Positions 47,060-63,363 of a DNA stretch of 64,000 nt are shown piece after piece. The stretch comes from Vampirovibrionales bacterium (GTDB lineage Bacteria; Cyanobacteriota; Vampirovibrionia; Vampirovibrionales; Vampirovibrionaceae). Each line of letters opens with the position of its first letter. The stretch's first letter is position 1. The position numbers were made by a program, and so were the translations under genes. Under the pieces are notes generated by a model, which saw only the letters and a list, made by a program, of their open reading frames with translations, was not told where the DNA came from and ran no database searches. The DNA is taken from contig JADJRF010000005.1 of assembly GCA_016712355.1 (NCBI GenBank), positions 1,997,184 to 2,061,183 on the forward strand, given 5' to 3'.

Positions 47060-47592
47060 AATCGTTGCAGAAAGCGGCTCTGCGCTGTTTCCATCGCAAA
47101 CAAAAGCTTTGGAGCGAATCGCCGTCGCAGGCGATCGCGAAACGAGCGAATGACAAGGGATTTTGACGTTCTGGAATCGCGATCGCCTTGTAATAGAATG
47201 CGAAAGGATAGATTCTGGCATCGTCATCGTCATGGTCGCAAAAAAGCATGCGGATTATAGCGCAAAGACGCGCGGGCTGTGTCCTGTGGACGGCAAGGCG
47301 GTTTTATACCGGCGGGTTTGCGCAGGGGAGCCGGGGTGATATATCGTTATTACCGCCATTTCATCGCCTTCCTGTCGGTTTTATATTGAAAGAAGGCCTA
47401 TATCATCATGCTAATTGGCGCAAAAAGAATGTAACGTTCCCGTGGATCGCGCGCAATTTCCATTTTAAGAATGTTTTTATTTTTTTATAAGACAGTCACG
47501 CCCCCATGCTGTCTCAGGCTCATATCGCAATGACACAGGTCTCTCGGTTCGTCGCGACCGCCGATCGCCTCGAATCCAAAGGAGGAGCATTC

Positions 47593-47790
47593 ATGGCCAA
47601 GGTTTTAATCTCAATGCGCGAGGATTTCCTGACCCGGATTGATGAAATCGCTTCAACCGAGCAACGGACGCGGAGCGAGCTGATTCGGCAGGCCTTGCGC
47701 GAGTATATTCGCCGTAAACGCAAGCTTTCCAACGCCAAATACGCCCAGAACGCCGAACTGATTGAATCCCTACTGCTGGAACTTGAATAA
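47593..47790 (+). CDS. Ribbon-helix-helix (CopG/MetJ-type) DNA-binding protein
   Basis: KVLISMREDFLTRIDEIASTEQRTRSELIRQALREYI is a beta-alpha-alpha RHH signature. GGAGGA RBS precedes the ATG. Confidence 0.55.
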   Translation: MAKVLISMREDFLTRIDEIASTEQRTRSELIRQALREYIRRKRKLSNAKYAQNAELIESLLLELE

Positions 47791-52232: not shown

Positions 52233-52377
52233 CAGAGAGAGGCGAGCGCCGCTACAGGCGTATGGGTGCGTCGGCGCTCTTTTTCGCAGACGTGACGCAC
52301 GTGACGAGTCGGGAGGACGCCCTTCGTTGGACTGGGGTCATGACACAATCCAGTGGCTCAGCGCCCAGCGCTGGTTC

Positions 52378-53331
52378 ATGCGGGTGAATTGGCGTCAACT
52401 GGGGCAGTTGGCCTTTCTGGCGCTCGGCGTTCTCTACCTTTATATGCGCTTTATCCGCGGCAGCCAGGCGGAGCAGTTATTCAAGGGGCTGTTTGTCATT
52501 CTCATTGGCTTTCTGGGCCTGTATATTCTGGCGGATTATTTTAATCTGGCGCTGATTGGCGCGGCGCTTGGCTTTGGGATTCAGATTCTGAGCGTGGCCC
52601 TGATTGTGATTTTTCAGCCGGAATTGCGGCGGATGCTGTTGTTTCTGGGGCAACCCGACCTGTTTGGCGAGCGCAGCCTGACGGCGCCCGCCCAGGAGCG
52701 GCTGGAGCGCAAGTCGGAGTACCTGATCGACACGCTGACCGAGGCCGTGCGCTTCCTGAGCAAGTCGCGCACCGGCGCCCTGATTGTGCTGGAGTCTGAG
52801 AACGATGCGGGAAGCCACTATCTGGAGGCGGGCGCCCGGCTCGACGCGCGCCTGAGCGCCGAAGCGCTGCTGACGATTTTTCATCCCAAGACGCCGCTGC
52901 ACGACGGCGCGGTGATTATTACGCCCGGCAACCGGATTGCCGCCGCCGGCGTTCTACTGCCCCTGACCGAGGATCCCAAGCTAAGCTGGCAGTTTGGCAC
53001 CCGTCACCGCGCCGCCATCGGCCTGACGGAAGTCTGCGACAGCTATTGCGTCGTGGTTTCCGAGGAAAGCGGGACGATTTCCATCGCCCACAAAGGCAAG
53101 CTCGAGAAAATGACAGGCGCTGACGAGCTTAAAAAGCGTCTGGAGAAGATTTACCACGTCCATGCCGACCGAAAGCGCGACGCCAAAGAGGGGACGCGCT
53201 CCTCGCTGGCCGCCGGACGCGACGACGAGGCGGCTTCAGACCGATTTTCGGATCAACTCCGCCATCTTTTCGCCCACCGCGCGCCGCGCCGCCTGCGCCG
53301 CCTGATCGTCCGCAACCCCGACCGCCGCTAG
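52378..53331 (+). CDS. cdaA: Diadenylate cyclase (c-di-AMP synthase) CdaA
   Basis: Three N-terminal TM helices, then a DisA_N domain with DGA(VII) and GTRHRAA motifs. Confidence 0.85.
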   Translation: MRVNWRQLGQLAFLALGVLYLYMRFIRGSQAEQLFKGLFVILIGFLGLYILADYFNLALIGAALGFGIQILSVALIVIFQPELRRMLLFLGQPDLFGERSLTAPAQERLERKSEYLIDTLTEAVRFLSKSRTGALIVLESENDAGSHYLEAGARLDARLSAEALLTIFHPKTPLHDGAVIITPGNRIAAAGVLLPLTEDPKLSWQFGTRHRAAIGLTEVCDSYCVVVSEESGTISIAHKGKLEKMTGADELKKRLEKIYHVHADRKRDAKEGTRSSLAAGRDDEAASDRFSDQLRHLFAHRAPRRLRRLIVRNPDRR

Positions 53332-53347
53332 ACCCCGGAGCCAGAAC

Positions 53348-53386
53348 CCCAGCGCCCGTTTCGCCCCGCGACGACGGGCGTTGGCG
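53348..53386. repeat. GC-rich hairpin repeat, copy 1 (cgcccgt-14 nt-acgggcg)
   Basis: 39/41 nt identical to copy 2 at 53838..53876. Confidence 0.8.
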
Positions 53387-53487
53387 TAAGCGCGAACGGC
53401 TTCAGAAACCCAAGGTTGTCATATTGTTATTGTCGTAGTATATTCAACGCGTCTGACAGTCCTACGCCCCCCCAAGGAGATTCCCCC

Positions 53488-53814
53488 ATGCAAGTCCGCT
53501 TTGGCAAAATTTCTTATGAGCCGCCAAAAAAGAGTAAGGAAATAGAACACCAAGTCACACTTCCGGTGAGCTTATTTCTGAACCCGCAACAAGCCCAAAA
53601 ACTTGGTGGGGAGGAAAAGTACCTCTATATAACCGGAAAAGACGCTAAAGGGCTTATCAAAACCGTTAAAGAGCTTGAAAGTGAGTTTCAAAGTTCGAAA
53701 AACAATCCAAATCCTAAAAAGATAAAGAAGGCTATTGTTTGTGGTCTAGGACCCACATTTAATAAGATTGAAAAATTTATCCGCAAAAACCCGCCTCACA
53801 AAGCAGGCAAGTAA
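53488..53814 (+). CDS. Small low-GC hypothetical protein (108 aa), VRFGKI-family cassette gene 1
   Basis: AAGGAG RBS. N-terminus MQVRFGKISY. Lys-rich. Strongly AT-rich coding sequence relative to the flanks. Confidence 0.55.
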   Translation: MQVRFGKISYEPPKKSKEIEHQVTLPVSLFLNPQQAQKLGGEEKYLYITGKDAKGLIKTVKELESEFQSSKNNPNPKKIKKAIVCGLGPTFNKIEKFIRKNPPHKAGK

Positions 53815-53837
53815 CGCACACCCCCGGATTTCCACAA

Positions 53838-53876
53838 CCCCCACGCCCGTTTCGCCCCGCGATGACGGGCGTTGGC
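53838..53876. repeat. GC-rich hairpin repeat, copy 2
   Basis: cccccacgcccgtttcgccccgcgatgacgggcgttggc. Confidence 0.8.
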
Positions 53877-53975
53877 TTTAATGCAGCACACTCAAATAGG
53901 CTGAATATTGCGCTTGCAGGGAAGTTATAGTCGTAGTAGATTTAAATCCGGTTCGCGACAGAAGGATTTCACCCC

Positions 53976-54377
53976 ATGGACTCGATGAACGTTCGCTTTG
54001 GTAAGATTGGGTATACATACCGCAAAGGCACTCGCAATGTAGACAGAGTAGACGCTGGGCTTATTTTACCGGCAGACATGCTGAGAGCGCTTGGTTGCGA
54101 GCGCAAACGTGAACTCTACCTGACGGGTGACGACCGAAAAGCCTGGCGGGCCACTGAAAGCGTCGCTGTTCTTAAAGCGCACGCCAACCACCATCTTACC
54201 GATCCGAGGCAGGCCCAGCATATTCTGACGAACGTACTGCCGCAAATTGGCGAACGCTTTAAACAACTGCAAGCAGACGTCGCAAACTTTATCGAGACAG
54301 CCCCCTATAACCCTGAGCGTCTCGAAAAAACGATTGACGGACGTAAAACTTACTGGTCGTGGGAGGCTAACGCTTAA
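53976..54377 (+). CDS. Small hypothetical protein (133 aa), VRFGKI-family cassette gene 2
   Basis: AAGGAT RBS. N-terminus MDSMNVRFGKIGY. The stop overlaps the truB stop convergently. Confidence 0.55.
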   Translation: MDSMNVRFGKIGYTYRKGTRNVDRVDAGLILPADMLRALGCERKRELYLTGDDRKAWRATESVAVLKAHANHHLTDPRQAQHILTNVLPQIGERFKQLQADVANFIETAPYNPERLEKTIDGRKTYWSWEANA

Positions 54378-55389: not shown

Positions 55390-55465
55390 GCGGGCGTAGC
55401 TCAGCTGGCAGAGCGAAAGCTTCCCAAGCTTTAGGTCGCGAGTTCGATCCTCGTCGCCCGCTCCA
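55390..55465 (+). tRNA. tRNA-Gly (anticodon CCC)
   Basis: Manual cloverleaf fold: acceptor gcgggcg/cgcccgc, D-arm gctc..gagc, anticodon arm aaagc-ttCCCaa-gcttt, T-arm gcgag-ttcgatc-ctcgt, discriminator U plus CCA. Confidence 0.8.
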
Positions 55466-55628: not shown

Positions 55629-55832
55629 ATGAAATTGCGAGATTACTTGCGCTGGATCGGCCAATATGGCTGGTCGCTTAAAAAATCGGGTGTGGATTGG
55701 TCGCTGATAAACGCTGAAGGCCGTCGCGTGATTCTCAATATCATTGTGACCCATCCTGGCCGCGAAGTGATTCCGGCCAGCGTGAAGAGAACGTCTCAGG
55801 CCCTTGAGGCAGAAGGGTTCTCGCAGGACTAG
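55629..55832 (+). CDS. hicA: HicA-like (YcfA/HicA family) mRNA interferase toxin
   Basis: MKLRDYLRWIGQYGW...HPGREVIPASVKRTSQALEAEG matches the HicA profile (KxxExxxxLxxxGW ... H ... I ... kqaG). About 68 aa. Confidence 0.5.
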   Translation: MKLRDYLRWIGQYGWSLKKSGVDWSLINAEGRRVILNIIVTHPGREVIPASVKRTSQALEAEGFSQD

Positions 55833-55860
55833 CCCCTCTCGTCAAGGAGGAATCGCCGGT

Positions 55861-56232
55861 ATGGTTGAGTTGGATCGCCATTTTGACATGGCCCGCGCGG
55901 AAGTCGACGGCGTACAACCGCAGTGGTCGCCGGAGGATCAGATGTATCTGGTCGAGCATCCCGCCTATCCAATGGTGATGCACGCCGACCCGGACCCGGA
56001 GAAGGCCCTGACCGGATATTTCCGGGCCCTGCGGCAATTTGTGAAATACCGACTGGCGGGCGAAATCGCCGATACGACCGAACAGGCGACCTCGGGTCGC
56101 GGCGGCGCGCGAGAAGGGGCCGGACGCCCCCGCAAAAATGAGACCAAAACCGTTCGCCTGCCCGTGGATATGGCCGACTGGCTGCGGGATCAGAAGCATC
56201 AGGACCAGGTGCGGCGCTTGATGCAGGGCTGA
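55861..56232 (+). CDS. hicB: HicB-like antitoxin (N-terminal HicB fold + C-terminal RHH-like DNA-binding tail)
   Basis: AAGGAGG RBS. YLVEHPAYPMVMHADPDPEKALTGYFRALRQFV matches the HicB N-domain pattern. C-terminal GRPRKNETKTVRLPVDMADWL. Confidence 0.5.
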   Translation: MVELDRHFDMARAEVDGVQPQWSPEDQMYLVEHPAYPMVMHADPDPEKALTGYFRALRQFVKYRLAGEIADTTEQATSGRGGAREGAGRPRKNETKTVRLPVDMADWLRDQKHQDQVRRLMQG

Positions 56233-56625: not shown

Positions 56626-57753
56626 ATGACCTCCCTCCATTTTGACGCCCTGTCGCTGACCCCCGAAACGCGAAAGGCCATCGACGAGATGGGCTACCGC
56701 CAAGCGTCTGCGATTCAGGCGCAAACGATTCCCCTGATGCGCCAAGGGCTGGACCTCATCGGCCAGGCGCAGACAGGAGGCGGCAAAACCGCCGCTTTTG
56801 CGATTCCGCTGATCGAGCGCACGGACCCGCAGGATATGTATGTTCAGGCGCTGACACTGTGCCCGACCCGCGAACTCGCGCTGCAGGTGTGCGGCGAGTT
56901 TCAGAAGCTGGGTAAATACCGCCGCTACTTCTTTACGGCGGCACTCTACGGCGGACAGCCCATTGAGCGCCAGTTGCGCCAACTTCGCCAGCGGCCGCCC
57001 ATCGTGATCGGGACGCCGGGGCGCGTGCTGGACTTGATTCGGCGCGGGGCGCTGGATTTGTCCCGCGTCAAAACCGTGGTGCTGGATGAAGCCGATGAAA
57101 TGCTGAACATGGGATTTCGTCCCGACATTGAGCGGATTCTGGCCTATACGCCCGAGACGCGGCAAACCGTGTTTTTCTCGGCCACGATGCCGCGCCCGAT
57201 TCTGGAGATGAGCGCGCGGTATTTGAAGAATCCGCAGCATATCCAGGCGCAGCGGCACGATGAGCCGGTGGCGGAAATCGAGCAGTCGTATTTTGAAGTG
57301 CCGCGCGCGGGTAAAATGGCGGTGCTGACCCATTTGATCGCCGAGCGACCGAGCGCGCGCGCGCTGATTTTCTGCAATACCAAGTGGGGCGTGGATTCGC
57401 TGGTCAAACGGCTGAAGAATCTGGGGATTGAGGCCGAAGGGCTCCATGGCGGCAAAACCCAACCGCAGCGCGACCGCATTATGAACAGCTTCCGTCAGGG
57501 GGCGACCCATTTGCTGGTGGCAACGGACGTGGCGGCGCGCGGCCTCCATGTGGATAACATCGAAGCCGTGATTAATTACGACCTGCCTAAAAATACCGAA
57601 TTTTACGTCCACCGGATCGGTCGCACCGGCCGGGCTGGGAAATCTGGGCGGGCGTTTACCTTTGTGGAGGCCAGCGAGTTTCAGCAATTGCGCCAGATTC
57701 GCCGCTACGCCAATGCGCGTCTGGTTCGTCAGGAGCTTCCGGCGCGGGCCTGA
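56626..57753 (+). CDS. DEAD-box ATP-dependent RNA helicase
   Basis: Q-motif, AQTGGGKT (motif I), PTRELA, DEAD (VLDEADEM), SAT, HRIGRTGRAG. Confidence 0.85.
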   Translation: MTSLHFDALSLTPETRKAIDEMGYRQASAIQAQTIPLMRQGLDLIGQAQTGGGKTAAFAIPLIERTDPQDMYVQALTLCPTRELALQVCGEFQKLGKYRRYFFTAALYGGQPIERQLRQLRQRPPIVIGTPGRVLDLIRRGALDLSRVKTVVLDEADEMLNMGFRPDIERILAYTPETRQTVFFSATMPRPILEMSARYLKNPQHIQAQRHDEPVAEIEQSYFEVPRAGKMAVLTHLIAERPSARALIFCNTKWGVDSLVKRLKNLGIEAEGLHGGKTQPQRDRIMNSFRQGATHLLVATDVAARGLHVDNIEAVINYDLPKNTEFYVHRIGRTGRAGKSGRAFTFVEASEFQQLRQIRRYANARLVRQELPARA

Positions 57754-57901
57754 CGCCGCACGGCTTTCCATGTGATGTTGTAAAAGCGAACGCCCCCTTG
57801 CGCTGACAAGCGGGGCGTTTGCGGTAGTTTTCTGTTTTTTGCGCGCGGCAATAGGGACGCCCGGCGTCCCTTGCGCTTGCGATACTGCGATCGCAGGCGC
57901 G

Positions 57902-58708
57902 CTAAGGCGGATGACGGCTGTCATCGGCGTAGCGCTTGGGTTCTGGCTGTTCTTGCGCCAGTCGAAACGTCTCTATCACGCGGCGATCGCGCGCGCTGGG
58001 TCCCGTAACCGGCTGAATAGGCGCGCGTTCTGGCCGTGGCAAGTCGCCTTCGCTTTGTGGCGGGACGATTCGCCAGCCCGGCGGCGGCTGTAAGGCGCGT
58101 GCCACATCGTCGAGGCGCTCGGGACTGATATCGGGATCGCGCCACCAGCCCTCATAGTTGACGCCGCCCCATTCCGGGTTGCTCAGCAGAATGCGCTGAC
58201 GCCGAAGCAGGTCAATCCAGCGCAGGCGCGGAAAATTCGGCGTTCGCTCCCGCACCGCGCGCGGATTGGGCGCAGGCTCGCCCCATTGCGCGCACAGCAG
58301 CTCGCCATCGTCTTGCGCCGCGCGTGGGCGCGTGGGGCGGGCGGGGTCGTCGCTCTCCGTCATCGGCGCGTCCAGACTGCGCAGCGCCCAGTCGGAGGGC
58401 TTGGGCTGCGGTGGATGCTTTGGCTGGAGCATCGTCAGCAGGCGATCGATGAGATTAATGGCGCTTTCGGTCGGGGTTTGCGGCTCGACGCCCGAAAGGG
58501 TCCGGTTAACGTCGCGGCGCATGCGGCGCGCCATCAGCGCCGGAAACCAGTATTTATGAAAATAACTCGCCCACGCGCGGACCTTCTCCTGAGAATCTGC
58601 GTACAGGGCGTCCATCAGGGTGCTGAACAACCCGACATTGGTTAGCAGCGCCATAAAAAACGGCGCATACCGATAGGAGGACCTTCGCGCCCACATGGTC
58701 GTCGTCAA
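57902..58708 (-). CDS. Hypothetical protein
   Basis: Long ORF with native GC composition. No recognisable motifs. Confidence 0.4.
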   Translation of the reverse strand: MTTTMWARRSSYRYAPFFMALLTNVGLFSTLMDALYADSQEKVRAWASYFHKYWFPALMARRMRRDVNRTLSGVEPQTPTESAINLIDRLLTMLQPKHPPQPKPSDWALRSLDAPMTESDDPARPTRPRAAQDDGELLCAQWGEPAPNPRAVRERTPNFPRLRWIDLLRRQRILLSNPEWGGVNYEGWWRDPDISPERLDDVARALQPPPGWRIVPPQSEGDLPRPERAPIQPVTGPSARDRRVIETFRLAQEQPEPKRYADDSRHPP

Positions 58709-58978
58709 GACCCCTCAGAAAACGTGTAACACCTTGGAAAGCCGTATTCAGATATACGAAGTATAGCATTTTTGATTAGCGCTGTCTAGTGTTTTTTTAA
58801 AATTTCGTGTGAATTTCAGGAGGGGGCATTCGTTTGTTCTGGAGGGCGGCGGGGTGAGGCGCGTTCGTCTTGCGACGAGTGGCTTTGAAACGGACAGGCA
58901 ATTTCGCCCGCGTCCTGGTTTAATTTACAGGAGCCCCCATTGTTTACTTTTATCAACAAGCCTTCGGAGTCTTCCCCC

Positions 58979-59356
58979 ATGGTTTCCATCAACCGATTCT
59001 CACCGCCGCCGGCTGCCAGCCCCCGTTTTGGCATGGCCTTCACGCCGGAAGCACAGGTACACCACGAGGCTAATAAGAAAATAGGAAAGGTTGTAATCGC
59101 GCTTGACGCTTTAAAAGACCCTAATTCCGAAATTTCTAATGCATTATTAGGACCCTTTAATGGCTGGAATGAAAGGGATCGCTCAACGCTTGATAAAGCT
59201 ATTAACACTTGGGCAAAAAGTAAGGATATTGTGAGTTTAATAGGGGTAATCCAGAAATTGAATTCAGCAGAGGCTATCATCCCTGATGAAATCATCATGC
59301 CCTTAAATAAGATTCATGCCAAAAAGCTCAAATCCAAAGAGCTTTATCAAATATAA
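58979..59356 (+). CDS. Small low-GC hypothetical protein (125 aa), MVSI..FSP..PRFGM-family gene 1
   Basis: N-terminal 20 codons nearly identical at DNA level to the 60380 gene. Alternative TTG start at 58940 is preceded by AGGAG. Confidence 0.5.
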   Translation: MVSINRFSPPPAASPRFGMAFTPEAQVHHEANKKIGKVVIALDALKDPNSEISNALLGPFNGWNERDRSTLDKAINTWAKSKDIVSLIGVIQKLNSAEAIIPDEIIMPLNKIHAKKLKSKELYQI

Positions 59357-59756
59357 TATTTATATAAAAATCTCTTGGCTTTTCACAAAATCCTTCCCTC
59401 TGAGTCTCATCAGCGCGCGGGTTTCCCTTTTGGAGGGACACCCGCGCCGCCGGAGGGGGCGGATTTGCCATTCGGATTATATTATAGTGCTTAAATGAAA
59501 GAAGCGTTCGTACCAGCAAGAGATACGGCTCTAGCATCAAAAGCGCCATTTGGATAAGCGCGAATTTTTGACTCGCGCCGCGTGACTTCCAGGCGAAAAG
59601 CACACTGATAACCGGCGCAAGCAGAATACTGAAGCCGAATACCGCCAGATAAATTCCGTGCCATGGCGGATCCAAGGCGGACGAATCAAAATGAAACGGA
59701 ATCAACACGAGCCGGATCGCGATACAGATGGCGTTGAAAATCAGAAGTTTATGCAT
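59328..59756 (-). CDS. Small 3-TM membrane protein (paralog of 59800..60078)
   Basis: MHKLLIFNAICIAIRLVL..PPWH..YLAVFGFSIL. AT-rich. Confidence 0.5.
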   Translation of the reverse strand: MHKLLIFNAICIAIRLVLIPFHFDSSALDPPWHGIYLAVFGFSILLAPVISVLFAWKSRGASQKFALIQMALLMLEPYLLLVRTLLSFKHYNIIRMANPPPPAARVSLQKGNPRADETQREGFCEKPRDFYINIIFDKALWI

Positions 59757-59799
59757 CGGACGCTTACCGGGGCTTTGAGCGATTCATCGGTTACGCGAA

Positions 59800-60078
59800 T
59801 TAGTCGTAGAGCCTGAATGAAAGAAAGGCGCGAAAAAACCAGAAATAAGGCTCGGCAATCAAGAACGCCATTTGGAGAATGGCTAATTTTTGATTCCTGC
59901 CGTCTGACTTCCAGGCAACAATCAAACTGACCGCCGCGCTAAACAGAATACTGAAGCCGACTGCCAGCAGATAAAGCTGATGCCACGGCGGAGCAAAATC
60001 CGAACCATCGAATAAAAACGCCCCCAACACAAGCCGGATCGCGATACAGATGGCGCTAGAAATCAGAAGTTTCTGCAT
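59800..60078 (-). CDS. Small 3-TM membrane protein (paralog of 59328..59756)
   Basis: MQKLLISSAICIAIRLVL..PPWHQLYLLAVGFSIL. The track ORF extends upstream into the repeat but without conservation. Confidence 0.5.
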   Translation of the reverse strand: MQKLLISSAICIAIRLVLGAFLFDGSDFAPPWHQLYLLAVGFSILFSAAVSLIVAWKSDGRNQKLAILQMAFLIAEPYFWFFRAFLSFRLYD

Positions 60079-60171
60079 GAGACTCTCACAGAGGGTCAAA
60101 CAGGCATTATACAACGCCTGTCTTCGACAATCCGTGCCGGATTGAGCCGCCTGCCTCACGCCCCACGGGGA

Positions 60172-60308
60172 GCCGCGCGCGCCGGAATGCGCCTTTACGG
60201 CGCGTGGGTCTCGGCGGTTTTTTGCAGGGCCGCCCACGCCAGAGGCGGCGGGCAGGTCGCGCCGGGCGCGGGTTTCAGGCGCAGCCAGAGGACGCGCGGC
60301 TTTACAAG
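60172..60308 (-). pseudogene. Start-less fragment homologous to the 3' end (last ~45 codons) of the pseudopilin gene 62416..63363, copy A
   Basis: The minus strand translates to ...LWLRLKPAPGATCPPPLAWAALQKTAETHAP*, matching ...IWLRLKPAPGATYPPRLAWAALQKTAEAPPLE*. Confidence 0.7.
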
Positions 60309-60379
60309 GGGACGTATTTTGATTACGATTGTCGTTTTCCTACACGTGTAACCGTTCTACTGTTCAGGAGGAATCTCTC

Positions 60380-60760
60380 ATGGTCTCCATCCGCCCATTC
60401 TCACCAGCCACGCCTCGTTTTGGGATGACCATGCCCGCCAAAGACGACAGAGAACGCTATGAGTTGGAAACAGTCCATGATCTCTTAGACGAGCTCAGAA
60501 ATATCCAACAGGATTTACCTCCGCAACCTGAGCACGAATCACCGTTAATAGATGCGGCTCAAATATTGCAGAAGTCTAAAAATAAGGGTTTTAAAAGAAC
60601 CCTTAAGACTGCCCTAACTGGATTTGCCCAGCCTTATCTACCCAATGAATTATTAAAATTATTATATAATTTGAAACAACTAGATTATTCAGTCCCCCAT
60701 TCTATCCTCAAGCCGATACTTAAGGTGTATAGAAAGAAGCTTGAATCGGGGGAACATTAA
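60380..60760 (+). CDS. Small low-GC hypothetical protein (126 aa), MVSI..FSP..PRFGM-family gene 2
   Basis: AGGAGG RBS 8 nt upstream of the ATG. N-terminus MVSIRPFSPATPRFGM. Confidence 0.55.
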   Translation: MVSIRPFSPATPRFGMTMPAKDDRERYELETVHDLLDELRNIQQDLPPQPEHESPLIDAAQILQKSKNKGFKRTLKTALTGFAQPYLPNELLKLLYNLKQLDYSVPHSILKPILKVYRKKLESGEH

Positions 60761-60773
60761 TAAAAGGAGTGTC

Positions 60774-60910
60774 GCCGCGCGCGCCGGAATACGATTCTAC
60801 GGCGCGTGGGACTCGGCGGTTTTTTGCAGGGCCGCCCACGCCAGAGGCGGCGGGCAGGTCGAGCCGGGCGCGGGTTTCAGGCGCAGCCAGAGGACGCGCG
60901 GCTTTACAAG
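60774..60910 (-). pseudogene. Pseudopilin 3'-end fragment, copy B (about 95% identical to copy A over about 135 bp)
   Basis: Same orientation as copy A and as the intact gene 3' end. Confidence 0.7.
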
Positions 60911-61012
60911 CGGGTGGGTTAAACGGCACTTGCATTTTGACTATAAGCGTAACAAACATCCCTGAAAACATACGATTGGGCGCCGGCGTCACACGAGTCG
61001 TATAATGGGAAG

Positions 61013-61363
61013 ATGCTGTATTACATTGCAAAATTAGGCCTCTCGGCCGCTCTGATTCTGGCCGTCAGTGAAATTGCCAAACGGTCGCCATTGCTTGGCG
61101 CCATAGTCGCCTCTCTCCCCCTGCTCTCTGTGCTGGCCATGATTTGGCTTTATCAGGAAACAAAAAATCCACAGGCGATTGCGACGCTTTCTTATTCAAT
61201 TTTCTGGATGGTTATTCCTTCTCTGGTTCTCTTTATTTCACTTCCCGAATTCCTCAAGAAGGATGTTCCGTTTTATCCGGCCTTATTATTTTCCAGTATA
61301 TTAACTGTTCTGGCTTATTTCCTGATGATATTTCTTCTTTCCAAAATAGGGACGAGAATATAA
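61013..61363 (+). CDS. Small 4-TM membrane protein (hypothetical)
   Basis: 116 aa, hydrophobic, AT-rich. Confidence 0.45.
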   Translation: MLYYIAKLGLSAALILAVSEIAKRSPLLGAIVASLPLLSVLAMIWLYQETKNPQAIATLSYSIFWMVIPSLVLFISLPEFLKKDVPFYPALLFSSILTVLAYFLMIFLLSKIGTRI

Positions 61364-61530
61364 AAGCGAATTTCTGATCCGGACAGACCGGGCAAAGCCG
61401 TGCCGGATTGATCCGCCTGCCTCCATGCGTCACGCCGCACAGGCAGTCATGCGGCGGCGGACGATCGCCTGTAGGGGGCGGGACTGGATTTGCGCCTCTC
61501 CAGAGGCGATTTCAGGGGCGGGGTCAGGCG

Positions 61531-62316
61531 TCAGCGTAAGGGGAGCATGATGTTTCCGCCTCCCTTGCCGACCACCACGGTCGTGGGCGAGACCCCGTTC
61601 CACTTTTTAACGATGTCTAACTCGATCACCTGCGGCGATGACTTCAGGGCCTGCCCCTTGATTTGGACGGCCTTGGCTTCCGCCTCGGCGTTGACCAACG
61701 TGATTTCCGCGTCTTTTTTGGCCTTATCCAATTCGTAGCGTTTGGCTAAAGCTTCTTGCTCCTTGATCTGCTTTTGTTCGATGGCATGCTCGAGATCATC
61801 GCTGAGATCGATATTGGCAATGGGAATATCCTGCACCACCAGCAGGCCATCTACTTTATGGCTGACCTTTTCCATGACGTTTCTTTTGACGGCCTCGCGA
61901 TTCTTGACCAGATCTTCAGCGCGGTAATTAGCGCTTTCTTCTTTGAGGCTTTCCTGAATCCGGGGCTCTAATAAAGATTGGTAGGGATCGCCCTGATATT
62001 TCTGAAACAGTTCGACGACTTTATTTTCCGGGATGCGGTAAAGCGCCTGGAAATCGACCTGCACGGTCTGCAAGTCGCTACTAAAGCAAGCTGCCTTTCC
62101 GCTAACCGTAATTTGCTTAATCGGGACCCGGACAATCTCTTCGATAAAGGGCATTTTAAGACTGAAGCCTTCGCGCCGAAAATGCCGGTCCACCGATCCC
62201 AGCGTCACGCTAATCCCGCGATATCCCGGCGGAATAATCGTAAAACACTGCTGAAACAGGAAAATCCCAACAAGGCTGAGCCCCAGAAGCGTCCAAACCT
62301 TGGCGGCAACCGGCAT
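61531..62316 (-). CDS. SPFH/band-7 (prohibitin/HflC-like) membrane protein
   Basis: N-terminal TM, SPFH core, and a C-terminal coiled-coil EQKQIKEQEALAKRYELDKAKKDAEI. Confidence 0.65.
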   Translation of the reverse strand: MPVAAKVWTLLGLSLVGIFLFQQCFTIIPPGYRGISVTLGSVDRHFRREGFSLKMPFIEEIVRVPIKQITVSGKAACFSSDLQTVQVDFQALYRIPENKVVELFQKYQGDPYQSLLEPRIQESLKEESANYRAEDLVKNREAVKRNVMEKVSHKVDGLLVVQDIPIANIDLSDDLEHAIEQKQIKEQEALAKRYELDKAKKDAEITLVNAEAEAKAVQIKGQALKSSPQVIELDIVKKWNGVSPTTVVVGKGGGNIMLPLR

Positions 62317-62415
62317 TTTTGACGAGAAAACGGGGAGGCGGGAGAACGTCATCTGGCGGGTTCCTTTCAGTGGGGGCGTCTGTCTTTATTTAGGCGTAAC
62401 GCCCCGCCCACGGCA

Positions 62416-63363
62416 TCATTCAAGTGGTGGGGCCTCGGCGGTTTTTTGCAGGGCCGCCCACGCCAGACGCGGCGGATAGGTCGCGCCGGGCGCGGGTTTC
62501 AGGCGCAGCCAGATGACAGCGCCTGACGGGCTCGCCAGCGGCTGAACCTCGTAGGTCTGCGCCCAGGCGGCGTAAGGCTGCGCGCCCGGCGCGGCCATCG
62601 CGTCCAGAGCCCCGCGATCGACGCCGTTGATGATCACCCGCATCGCGCGCATGCCGCGCCGGGCCAAGGGGTCGCCCTCGGCAACGCCCAGCGTTAAACG
62701 ATAACGGGCCTGCGCCGAGGCGGGGAATCCGTAGGCCAGCTCCGGCGCTTCCTCGCCGTCTGCAAACAGAATGGGGTCGGGCGTCTGCGCGATGTCGCGG
62801 CGCAGGACGTAGCGCGCGGGCGTCAAGCCGGACAGCCATCCGCCGCGACGATCGCCGGGCTTCCACGTAAAAGGCTGGCGCGACGGGGACCACGTACGAC
62901 CGGCCGCGTCGCGGTAATAAGCGGCGGGCGCGCCGAGATTCCAGCCGCGAAAGTCGGGAGCGATGTCGCGGCTCATCTGCATCAGGGGGGCGCGGCCCTT
63001 GATGTCGCGATACAGCGTCAGACGCGCCACCCAGCGATCGGCGCGACGCGGATCGCTCCAGATCTCGCGGCGATAGAACAGAGGCGAACGGTCCGGCAAA
63101 AAGACGGCCTTGATCTGCGGCGAGCCGTAAGCGGCCTGCATCGCGGGATGGGCGGCGTTGGGCTCGTGAATCAGCGCGCTGGCGGCGGCGGCCTGGAACT
63201 GCTGGCGCGCGCTCTCGCGCAGACGGGCCTCTGAACGCTCCAGCATCAGAAACAGAATGGCCGTCGCGATGGCGAAAAACGTCAGCGCGGCCATCGTTTC
63301 AACCAGCGACCAGCCCCGCGACGCGGCGGATGTCGAGAAGAAAGGCGGACGCTTAGCGTTCAT
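62416..63363 (-). CDS. Pseudopilin/minor pilin-like protein with prepilin-type N-terminal cleavage/methylation motif
   Basis: ...SRG|WSLVETMAALTFFAIATAILFLML matches the G-[FW]-[TS]-L-[IV]-E prepilin signature. Start at MNAKRPPFF (63363). Confidence 0.6.
   Translation of the reverse strand: MNAKRPPFFSTSAASRGWSLVETMAALTFFAIATAILFLMLERSEARLRESARQQFQAAAASALIHEPNAAHPAMQAAYGSPQIKAVFLPDRSPLFYRREIWSDPRRADRWVARLTLYRDIKGRAPLMQMSRDIAPDFRGWNLGAPAAYYRDAAGRTWSPSRQPFTWKPGDRRGGWLSGLTPARYVLRRDIAQTPDPILFADGEEAPELAYGFPASAQARYRLTLGVAEGDPLARRGMRAMRVIINGVDRGALDAMAAPGAQPYAAWAQTYEVQPLASPSGAVIWLRLKPAPGATYPPRLAWAALQKTAEAPPLE

Follow-up and report, generated by a model that had tools for sequence, protein, structure and literature searches.

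In islands that sit at the 3' ends of tRNA and tmRNA genes, partial copies of the gene end mark successive integrations, the older ones being distal and decayed. Staphylococcal cassette chromosome (SCC) elements occupy the 3' end of rlmH (orfX) with short direct repeats, a repeat of the gene end delimiting each module, and pseudo-SCC modules that lack ccr depend on ccr in trans. To our knowledge, mobile genetic elements have been little studied in the Vampirovibrionales and Melainabacteria. Here we analyse 64,000 nt of an uncultured Vampirovibrionales bacterium (contig JADJRF010000005.1; hereafter the window), where the 3' end of a pilin-like gene, which we call 'pilC', recurs in the same orientation within a low-GC islet of 3.7 kb (58709-62415). 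For SCC, one report describes a 40-kb composite island of three SCC elements, one of them a pseudo-SCC (10.1101/336396). The element e14 integrates in icd, supplies a new 3' end to the gene and leaves a 163-bp pseudo-icd' (PMC6379469).

The locus resembles the e14/icd and SCC/rlmH type in that the presumably inserted DNA lies between direct repeats of a gene end, the gene itself being intact at the proximal copy. As with e14 or phage 21 at icd, the displaced end would persist as a start-less direct repeat; the length of the repeat (~90-160 nt) agrees as well, and so do the slight changes in the C-terminal amino acids. However, e14 is a single 15-kb element with its own integrase, whereas this locus comprises three or more intervals of 0.6-1.6 kb, its internal copies have arms of their own, and no recombinase was found in the window. 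Composite SCC islands share the serial tandem accretion at one gene's 3' end that we propose below, but their repeats are ~15-20 nt, their modules measure kb to tens of kb and ccr serine recombinases are encoded somewhere in the island, none of which holds here. In contrast to tRNA and tmRNA islands, the target is a protein-coding pilin-like gene, and the units are about an order of magnitude smaller, with no integrase found in the window.

A gene end that recurs beyond pilC

The gene and the copies of its end are as follows.

62416..63363, minus strand: the pilin-like gene 'pilC' (IPK79_10890), 315 aa from ATG, identified from the list of open reading frames (ORFs) and from protein P0001, 100% identical
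62430..62522, minus strand: copy C, a ~93-nt core in the 3' end of pilC, found by the repeat finder and blastn
60774..60913, minus strand: copy B, a 140-nt unit without a start codon in which arms of 37 nt and ~20 nt flank the core
60172..60311, minus strand: copy A, a 140-nt unit, 95% identical to B overall and at 80/82 positions in the core
~59406..59464, minus strand: copy Z, a decayed and truncated fourth copy of ~76% identity

The repeat finder returned direct copies at 60172-60311, 60774-60913 (95%) and 62396-62535 (70% ungapped). By blastn, A and B are 95% identical over 140 nt, while A or B against C gives 93.5/92.5% over 93 nt (60206-60297 = 62430-62522). The 31-mer GGCGGTTTTTTGCAGGGCCGCCCACGCCAGA is present exactly in A, B and C and absent elsewhere in the window, with 0 expected in 100 shuffles. 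A preliminary description of this DNA had reported three copies in one orientation at these positions, with A and B near-identical; both statements stand, the similarity of A and B having sharp ends. It had also taken the repeat to be the last 100-140 bp of the gene. The gene end does recur, but only over ~93 nt, the core delimited by the alignment of A, B and C which that description had proposed; this core stops 11 nt short of the pilC stop codon (62416-62418).

Whereas the pilC protein ends ...YPPRLAWAALQKTAEAPPLE, the translation of copy A in the same frame ends ...LRLKPAPGATCPPPLAWAALQKTAETHAP. The A frame encodes ...VLWLRLKPAPGATCPPPLAWAALQKTAETHAP and the B frame ...GSTCPPPLAWAALQKTAESHAP, with stops upstream and no ATG in either, as the preliminary description had read them; the B peptide (...GSTCPPP...AESHAP*) is 2 residues off that of A. 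Both contain ~31 conserved codons near the C-terminus followed by 4 private codons and a stop, and the A and B cores are 99% identical.

The repeats are also supported by short reads. Logan contigs from SRR11674035 correspond to window positions 57087-60239 (L005) and 60881-62463 (L001), both at 100% identity, and their ends lie exactly 30 nt beyond the copy-distinguishing bases 60209, 60911 and 62433. Ending at copy-specific bases is how a k=31 graph behaves at true repeats, so the repeats are not an assembly artefact; the break at 60881 further means that both A-type and B-type right flanks exist in the SRR11674035 sample. Three junctions are confirmed by these contigs.

P0001, the protein identical to the pilC ORF, is IPK79_10890 of a Vampirovibrionales metagenome-assembled genome, and the gene is the final member of a run of at least two pilin-like genes. 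Its N-terminus is of the prepilin type, ASRG/WSLVE (ASRG/WSLVETMAALTFFAIATAILF), followed by a hydrophobic helix, and the gene upstream starts with RRG/VGWVEVGVALLIG, again a prepilin-type G/xxxxE motif with a hydrophobic helix. pilC thereby shows the class III signal, G/(F/W/V)xxxE plus hydrophobic helix, within an operon of like genes. The AlphaFold2 model of the product has a helix at residues 20-65 (predicted local distance difference test, pLDDT, 80-84 there) and then beta strands, with a mean pLDDT of 52. Among curated pilin and pseudopilin models none matched pilC above threshold and Pfam gave no family; the best NCBIfam match was XpsI (E 0.064, 13 bits vs a cutoff of 150), and that of the homolog described next was ComGE (E 0.18). 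Given the motif, 'pilin-like' appears a reasonable label.

Only one further pilC homolog was found among 5.8 billion proteins: P0002, of 50% identity, encoded on Logan contigs L002 and L003 and, in L002, in the same two-gene pilin-like arrangement as pilC. Its C-terminus ends ...ILWLRLVPAPGATHAPRLACVSLEKLD, so that the repeated stretch is conserved in the homolog. Since P0002 has this counterpart, the repeated stretch is the native conserved C-terminus, and therefore A and B were copied from a gene end rather than the gene end from them. At the P0002 locus no copies of its own gene end lie within 4.5 kb downstream, and the downstream genes are wholly different.

The similarity among the copies changes in steps. 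Over the 82-nt centre, A and B agree at 80/82 positions and either agrees with C at 76-77/82; the core differences are ATC/CTC, TAT/TGC and CGT/CCT. The other ~45 nt of the 140-nt unit form arms that only A and B have, with agreement between the two at 33/37 and 20/21 positions. Against C, these arms reach 16-18/32 and 12-13/21, ~55% with gaps, which is not significant (p 0.16, 0.02, 0.54; for the outer arm of C, p is 0.02 with B and 0.16 with A). No significant homology was found between the A/B arms and the flanks of pilC. Past the arms, similarity drops to the random level, A and B diverging abruptly from each other on either side. A core identity of 94% beside unrelated arms is impossible by uniform divergence from a distant allele, so the core must have been kept or homogenised at the DNA level. 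The identity profile thus reads as stepwise, as in recombination sites and unlike decaying paralogs, and A and B appear as one discrete 140-nt module (core plus two private arms) set in two different surroundings.

This anatomy bears directly on the possibility, raised by the preliminary description against its own proposal, that A and B are what is left of two further full-length pilin paralogs decayed in place. The orientation and reading frame are those of pilC, and protein similarity extends to 41 residues, as such an origin would have it. However, A and B break off at the same points on either side, they are directly abutted by non-pilin DNA (the upstream regions of MVSI-2 and the four-transmembrane (4-TM) gene, listed below), tblastn finds no other pilin-derived sequence in the islet, and the divergence is stepwise rather than uniform. 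Decay in place is so improbable on these grounds that we regard it as effectively refuted.

The discreteness of the unit could also be that of a miniature inverted-repeat transposable element (MITE) or a repetitive extragenic palindromic (REP)-like repeat that captured ~93 nt of the pilin gene end and settled between the genes of an islet that was variable beforehand, in which case the cargo would not have been brought by A and B. The unit is 140 nt long with sharp ends and an 8-9-nt terminal inverted repeat, (A)GCCGCGCG...CGCGCGGC(T), both copies are intergenic, and the islet also has tandem duplication and decay that do not involve the units. Against this, just two full copies occur in the 64-kb window, oriented like the parent gene and no more than 2.3 kb away from it; no target-site duplication flanks B; the inverted repeat consists only of G and C in 75%-GC DNA, and the A/B similarity runs 7 nt past it on one side; and there is no transposase in the window. 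We therefore consider a captured repeat of this kind improbable.

Differences between A and B fall at 2/92 positions in the core vs 5/48 in the arms (p 0.047). The 37-nt arm of B holds the inverted repeat CGCGCCG...CGGCGCG, and in this outer-arm hairpin of A and B the stem is retained and the loop differs at 4 clustered positions. Better conservation of the core than of the arms, together with a stem that is kept around a variable loop, would suit retention for a function: read on the plus strand, the units would be antisense to the terminal ~93 nt of the pilin mRNA and might tie the expression of the islet genes to that of the pilin gene, or they would be terminator or insulator modules duplicated with their neighbours. 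Consistent with this, copy B begins 13 nt past the MVSI-2 stop, likely in its 3' untranslated region, and a second islet in the window (last section) duplicates a terminator-like hairpin and promoter box beside fast-diverging orphans. However, the A and B folds are no more stable than shuffles (DNA z -0.5 to -1.8, RNA about -1), the stem ends 12 nt before the T-run, which makes no canonical terminator, and a promoter match is weak and found in A only. Such a function would also account for the keeping of the units and not for their origin, and we hold it to be a distinctly remote explanation.

Copy Z has the orientation of A and B and covers the first half of the core along with part of an outer arm like theirs. 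It lies between the genes MVSI-1 and memb-1 and is truncated on the gene-proximal side. Its local alignment with A scores 19 vs 10.9 +/- 2.0, with 0/500 dinucleotide shuffles as good, and nhmmer gives it an E of 0.026 within the island and 0.44 in the whole window.

The low-GC islet and its genes

Between the pilC stop and a 65%-GC gene at its far edge, the islet contains these features.

61531..62352, minus strand: SPFH/prohibitin-family gene, 273 aa, GC 52%, Band_7 at E 8e-33
61395..61447, plus strand: motif E' (CCGTGCCGGATTGATCCGCCTGCCTC...), the second copy of motif E, 31 nt past the 4-TM stop
61013..61363, plus strand: gene for a 4-TM membrane protein, 116 aa, GC 43%, PRK09272 / PF28289
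60380..60760, plus strand: MVSI-2, an orphan gene of 126 aa, GC 42%
60129..60171, plus strand: motif E, abutting the outer arm of copy A
59800..60078, minus strand: memb-2, a small membrane protein of 92 aa, GC 48%
59328..59756, minus strand: memb-1, in tandem with its paralog memb-2 (55% aa identity over 92 aa)
58979..59356, plus strand: MVSI-1, 125 aa, GC 42%, a paralog of MVSI-2 at 27% aa identity
58709..58978: left edge of the low-GC islet, directly next to the start of the 65%-GC gene 57902-58708 (minus strand)

The interval between B and C holds the SPFH and 4-TM genes and that between A and B a single MVSI gene, just as the preliminary description had it, including their low GC: the islet genes have 42-52% GC vs 60% for the window. 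The SPFH gene, encoded on the strand of pilC, begins 63 nt past the pilC stop. Its homologs in other Vampirovibrionales/Melainabacteria are 60-71% identical, and in two relatives the neighbours of SPFH are a TPMT methyltransferase and a small ORF instead of pilin genes. The SPFH gene here thus sits away from the context conserved in the two relatives. The 4-TM protein belongs to the conserved hypothetical family PRK09272. A database search with MVSI-2 returned only MVSI-2 itself, and exact-protein look-ups gave no record for the pilC protein or MVSI-2. The intervals are compositionally foreign, and GC content, the orphan MVSI-2 and the SPFH context together mark them as foreign inserted DNA.

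In the two relatives (L006 5591-7463 and L007 4932-7107), the order is TPMT-family methyltransferase, an ORF of 61-84 aa and SPFH, a neighbourhood that is absent from this window.

Motif E is a further repeat of the islet. Its 26-nt core, CCGTGCCGGATTGAkCCGCCTGCCTC, has 2 matches in the window, both in the islet, vs 0 expected, and the repeat extends to ~43-53 nt at 72%. E' is followed by a GC-rich (68%) spacer up to 61530. A stretch of this region, 61424-61535 ('D'), was considered as a further copy of the gene end and rejected, having no significant similarity to A or C (p 0.07); likewise, an A-like unit upstream of MVSI-1 ('Y', in the edge region 58709-58978) is unsupported (p 0.26-0.35).

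The memb-1 ORF does not have the stop of memb-2 and runs 50 codons on through Z in the pilin frame (59328-59480). The extension reads ...PPPPAARVSLQKGNP..., to be compared with CPPPLAWAALQKTAE, and part of the annotated memb-1 protein is accordingly a fossil pilin C-terminus.

Near the left edge, ~58700-58790 is a probable remnant of a third memb-type gene (...DSANQK...) which overlaps the start region of the 57902-58708 gene. This remnant suggests earlier duplication and decay at the edge of the islet.

Proposed tandem accretion at the gene end and its rivals

Taken globally, the most likely reading of the locus is a gene-end recombination scar, in which the islet would have grown by repeated insertion of small circularisable units at the 3' end of pilC. 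We give this a probability of roughly 0.45; a version with homologous recombination only adds rather less than half as much again. The anatomy of the locus, the copying from the gene end, the discreteness of the units, the foreign composition of the intervals and the lack of copies in the one relative are shown by the data; insertion as a process, its order and the enzyme are what we infer here, and in this reading the enzyme and present-day mobility are unproven.

Mechanistically, each insertion would have recombined within the ~93-nt core, which would mimic the terminal coding sequence of the gene. Copy C would be the hybrid site that keeps pilC intact, while A and B would be junctions of neighbouring inserts, that is, regenerated sites of the attP type with element arms on both sides of the core. 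Such a junction status would explain why A and B are discrete, near-identical 140-nt units that share only the core with C. The units would be 602 nt long between A and B and 1622 nt long between B and C. Since no recombinase is encoded in them, the enzyme must work in trans, or else homologous recombination by the host takes its place. Copy Z would be an older junction, decayed and truncated; its greater distance from the gene and its stronger decay agree with a distal position of the older events.

The serial insertion at a gene terminus proposed in the preliminary description therefore holds in part: the gene-end origin, the discrete units, the foreign intervals, copy Z, the different place of SPFH in two relatives and the lack of copies at the P0002 locus speak for it, whereas no recombinase was found and the core of C does not have the A/B variants. 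Several observations weigh against accretion. Pfam matches to recombinases, transposases or IntI were absent from the ~52 ORFs screened in the 64-kb window, which reaches only 0.6 kb past the pilin genes on their far side; the preliminary description was thus right that the units carry no integrase. The core of C has none of the A/B-type variants, and its outer arm seems at best marginally A/B-like, a pattern which implies that the last insert brought a different arm or one that has diverged since. To derive the copies simply from successive crossovers within the core accordingly takes extra assumptions. A and B are equidistant from C and nearly identical, and may come from a single event or from gene conversion. 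The low-GC island runs 1.4 kb past copy A, so two insertions leave part of it unexplained, and the tandem paralogs and gene remnants beyond A indicate that local duplication and decay took place too. Finally, no close relative was found in the searched collections, and hence there is no empty site to compare.

The absence of a recombinase from the window is also what would be expected if homologous recombination had done all the work, with no dedicated recombinase or att site: circles from crossovers between the direct copies, or transformed DNA from relatives, would re-integrate in Campbell fashion at the gene end, and gene conversion would homogenise the cores. Perfect blocks of at least 31 nt, and of ~29 nt between A/B and C, are judged enough for RecA, the A/B core identity of 80/82 exceeds that of the arms, as conversion would give, and the host's pilin-like genes could conceivably serve DNA uptake. 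On the other hand, the private arms of A and B do not come from the flanks of pilC, so the first unit is no simple local duplication; C carries no A/B conversion tracts; and 93 nt of homology is short for efficient Campbell integration. Weighing these, we consider homologous recombination by itself unlikely, yet a serious rival on the question of the enzyme.

The preliminary description had likened the units to integron cassettes. As in cassette arrays and clusters of attC sites lacking integron-integrases (CALINs), the units are tiny, mostly single-gene and rich in orphans, with GC-rich sites of ~60-140 nt. However, integron cassettes have an R''/R' pair, a hairpin and intI, none of which was found here. 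A search of both strands of 58600-62600 for RYYYAAC...GTTRRRY at a spacing of 35-135 nt gave no pair; GTTRRRY occurs once, at 60918, unpartnered. Folded as DNA, A, B and C gave z of -0.5 to -1.8 on either strand, and the long-range pairing of A is not kept in B. Islet ORFs lie on both strands, unlike the co-oriented cassettes of integrons, and whereas attI and attC are not homologous, the docking and cassette sites here share 93 nt of homology. The likeness consequently fails at the attC core sites and the hairpin, and with no IntI in the window we ruled out an integron cassette array or CALIN. A bolder version, in which the Vampirovibrionales would have invented independently an integron-like cassette system, with a recombinase in trans, docking at the 3' end of a minor pilin gene and, in each cassette of 0.6-1.6 kb, a ~140-nt site that joins a 93-nt mimic of the gene end to two private arms and is unrelated to attC in sequence and predicted structure, is speculative and in our estimate doubtful.

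Other described mechanisms were considered and rejected. A diversity-generating retroelement does not fit, as the screened ORFs include no reverse transcriptase domain and the substitutions are not adenine-specific in either direction. Antigenic variation of the Neisseria pilS type was dismissed because the copies hold only the conserved end and no variable region, and shufflon-type inversion because the repeats are direct. Nor is integration linked to a tRNA: tRNA-Gly at 55390 has no 3'-end repeat downstream.

Searches for donors and further copies were negative within each collection. An exact 25-mer of the core had 0 matches in the genome contig collection, where a protein-profile scan gave 151 pattern matches, none of them confirmed. 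Of two codon-degenerate core patterns run against metagenome contigs, one had 0 matches and the other a single chance match (L004). The core and the E motif had 0 matches in viral contigs, and the whole islet had no blastn match among plasmids and phages. The 43-aa A peptide, compared with 1.84 billion representative proteins, met only a spurious low-complexity match.

Should accretion at the gene end be true, tiny gene units without an integrase would be stackable at the end of a protein-coding gene, a defined site of ~140 nt would be at hand for finding the recombinase and more cassettes, and orphan genes would have a hotspot at the end of the pilin-like operon. Were the locus no more than a fossil scar, it would be an ordinary, though clean, case of a well-known footprint.

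Other features of the window

A second low-GC islet (53333-54377) lies directly 3' of cdaA (52327-53331). A GC-rich hairpin unit of 55 nt at 53333-53385, 2 nt past the cdaA stop, recurs at 53822-53876 with 87% identity; both hairpins are significantly stable (z about -3). Each is followed by a GTTATwGTCGTAGTAkATT box and a low-GC orphan gene (53488-53814 and 53976-54377), the two orphans being paralogs with 37% aa identity over 60 residues. From its layout, this islet looks like a tandem duplication of terminator, promoter and orphan, in which the non-coding parts would be better conserved than the genes.

After the tRNA-Gly(CCC) gene (55390-55465) come ~1.1 kb of DNA that codes poorly, up to 56545, with an ORF at 55804-56232 that has no Pfam match. 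A small ribbon-helix-helix (CopG/VapB-like) gene at 47506-47790 lies in a low-GC stretch (47-48 kb, GC 52%), and may be a toxin-antitoxin remnant or another small insert.

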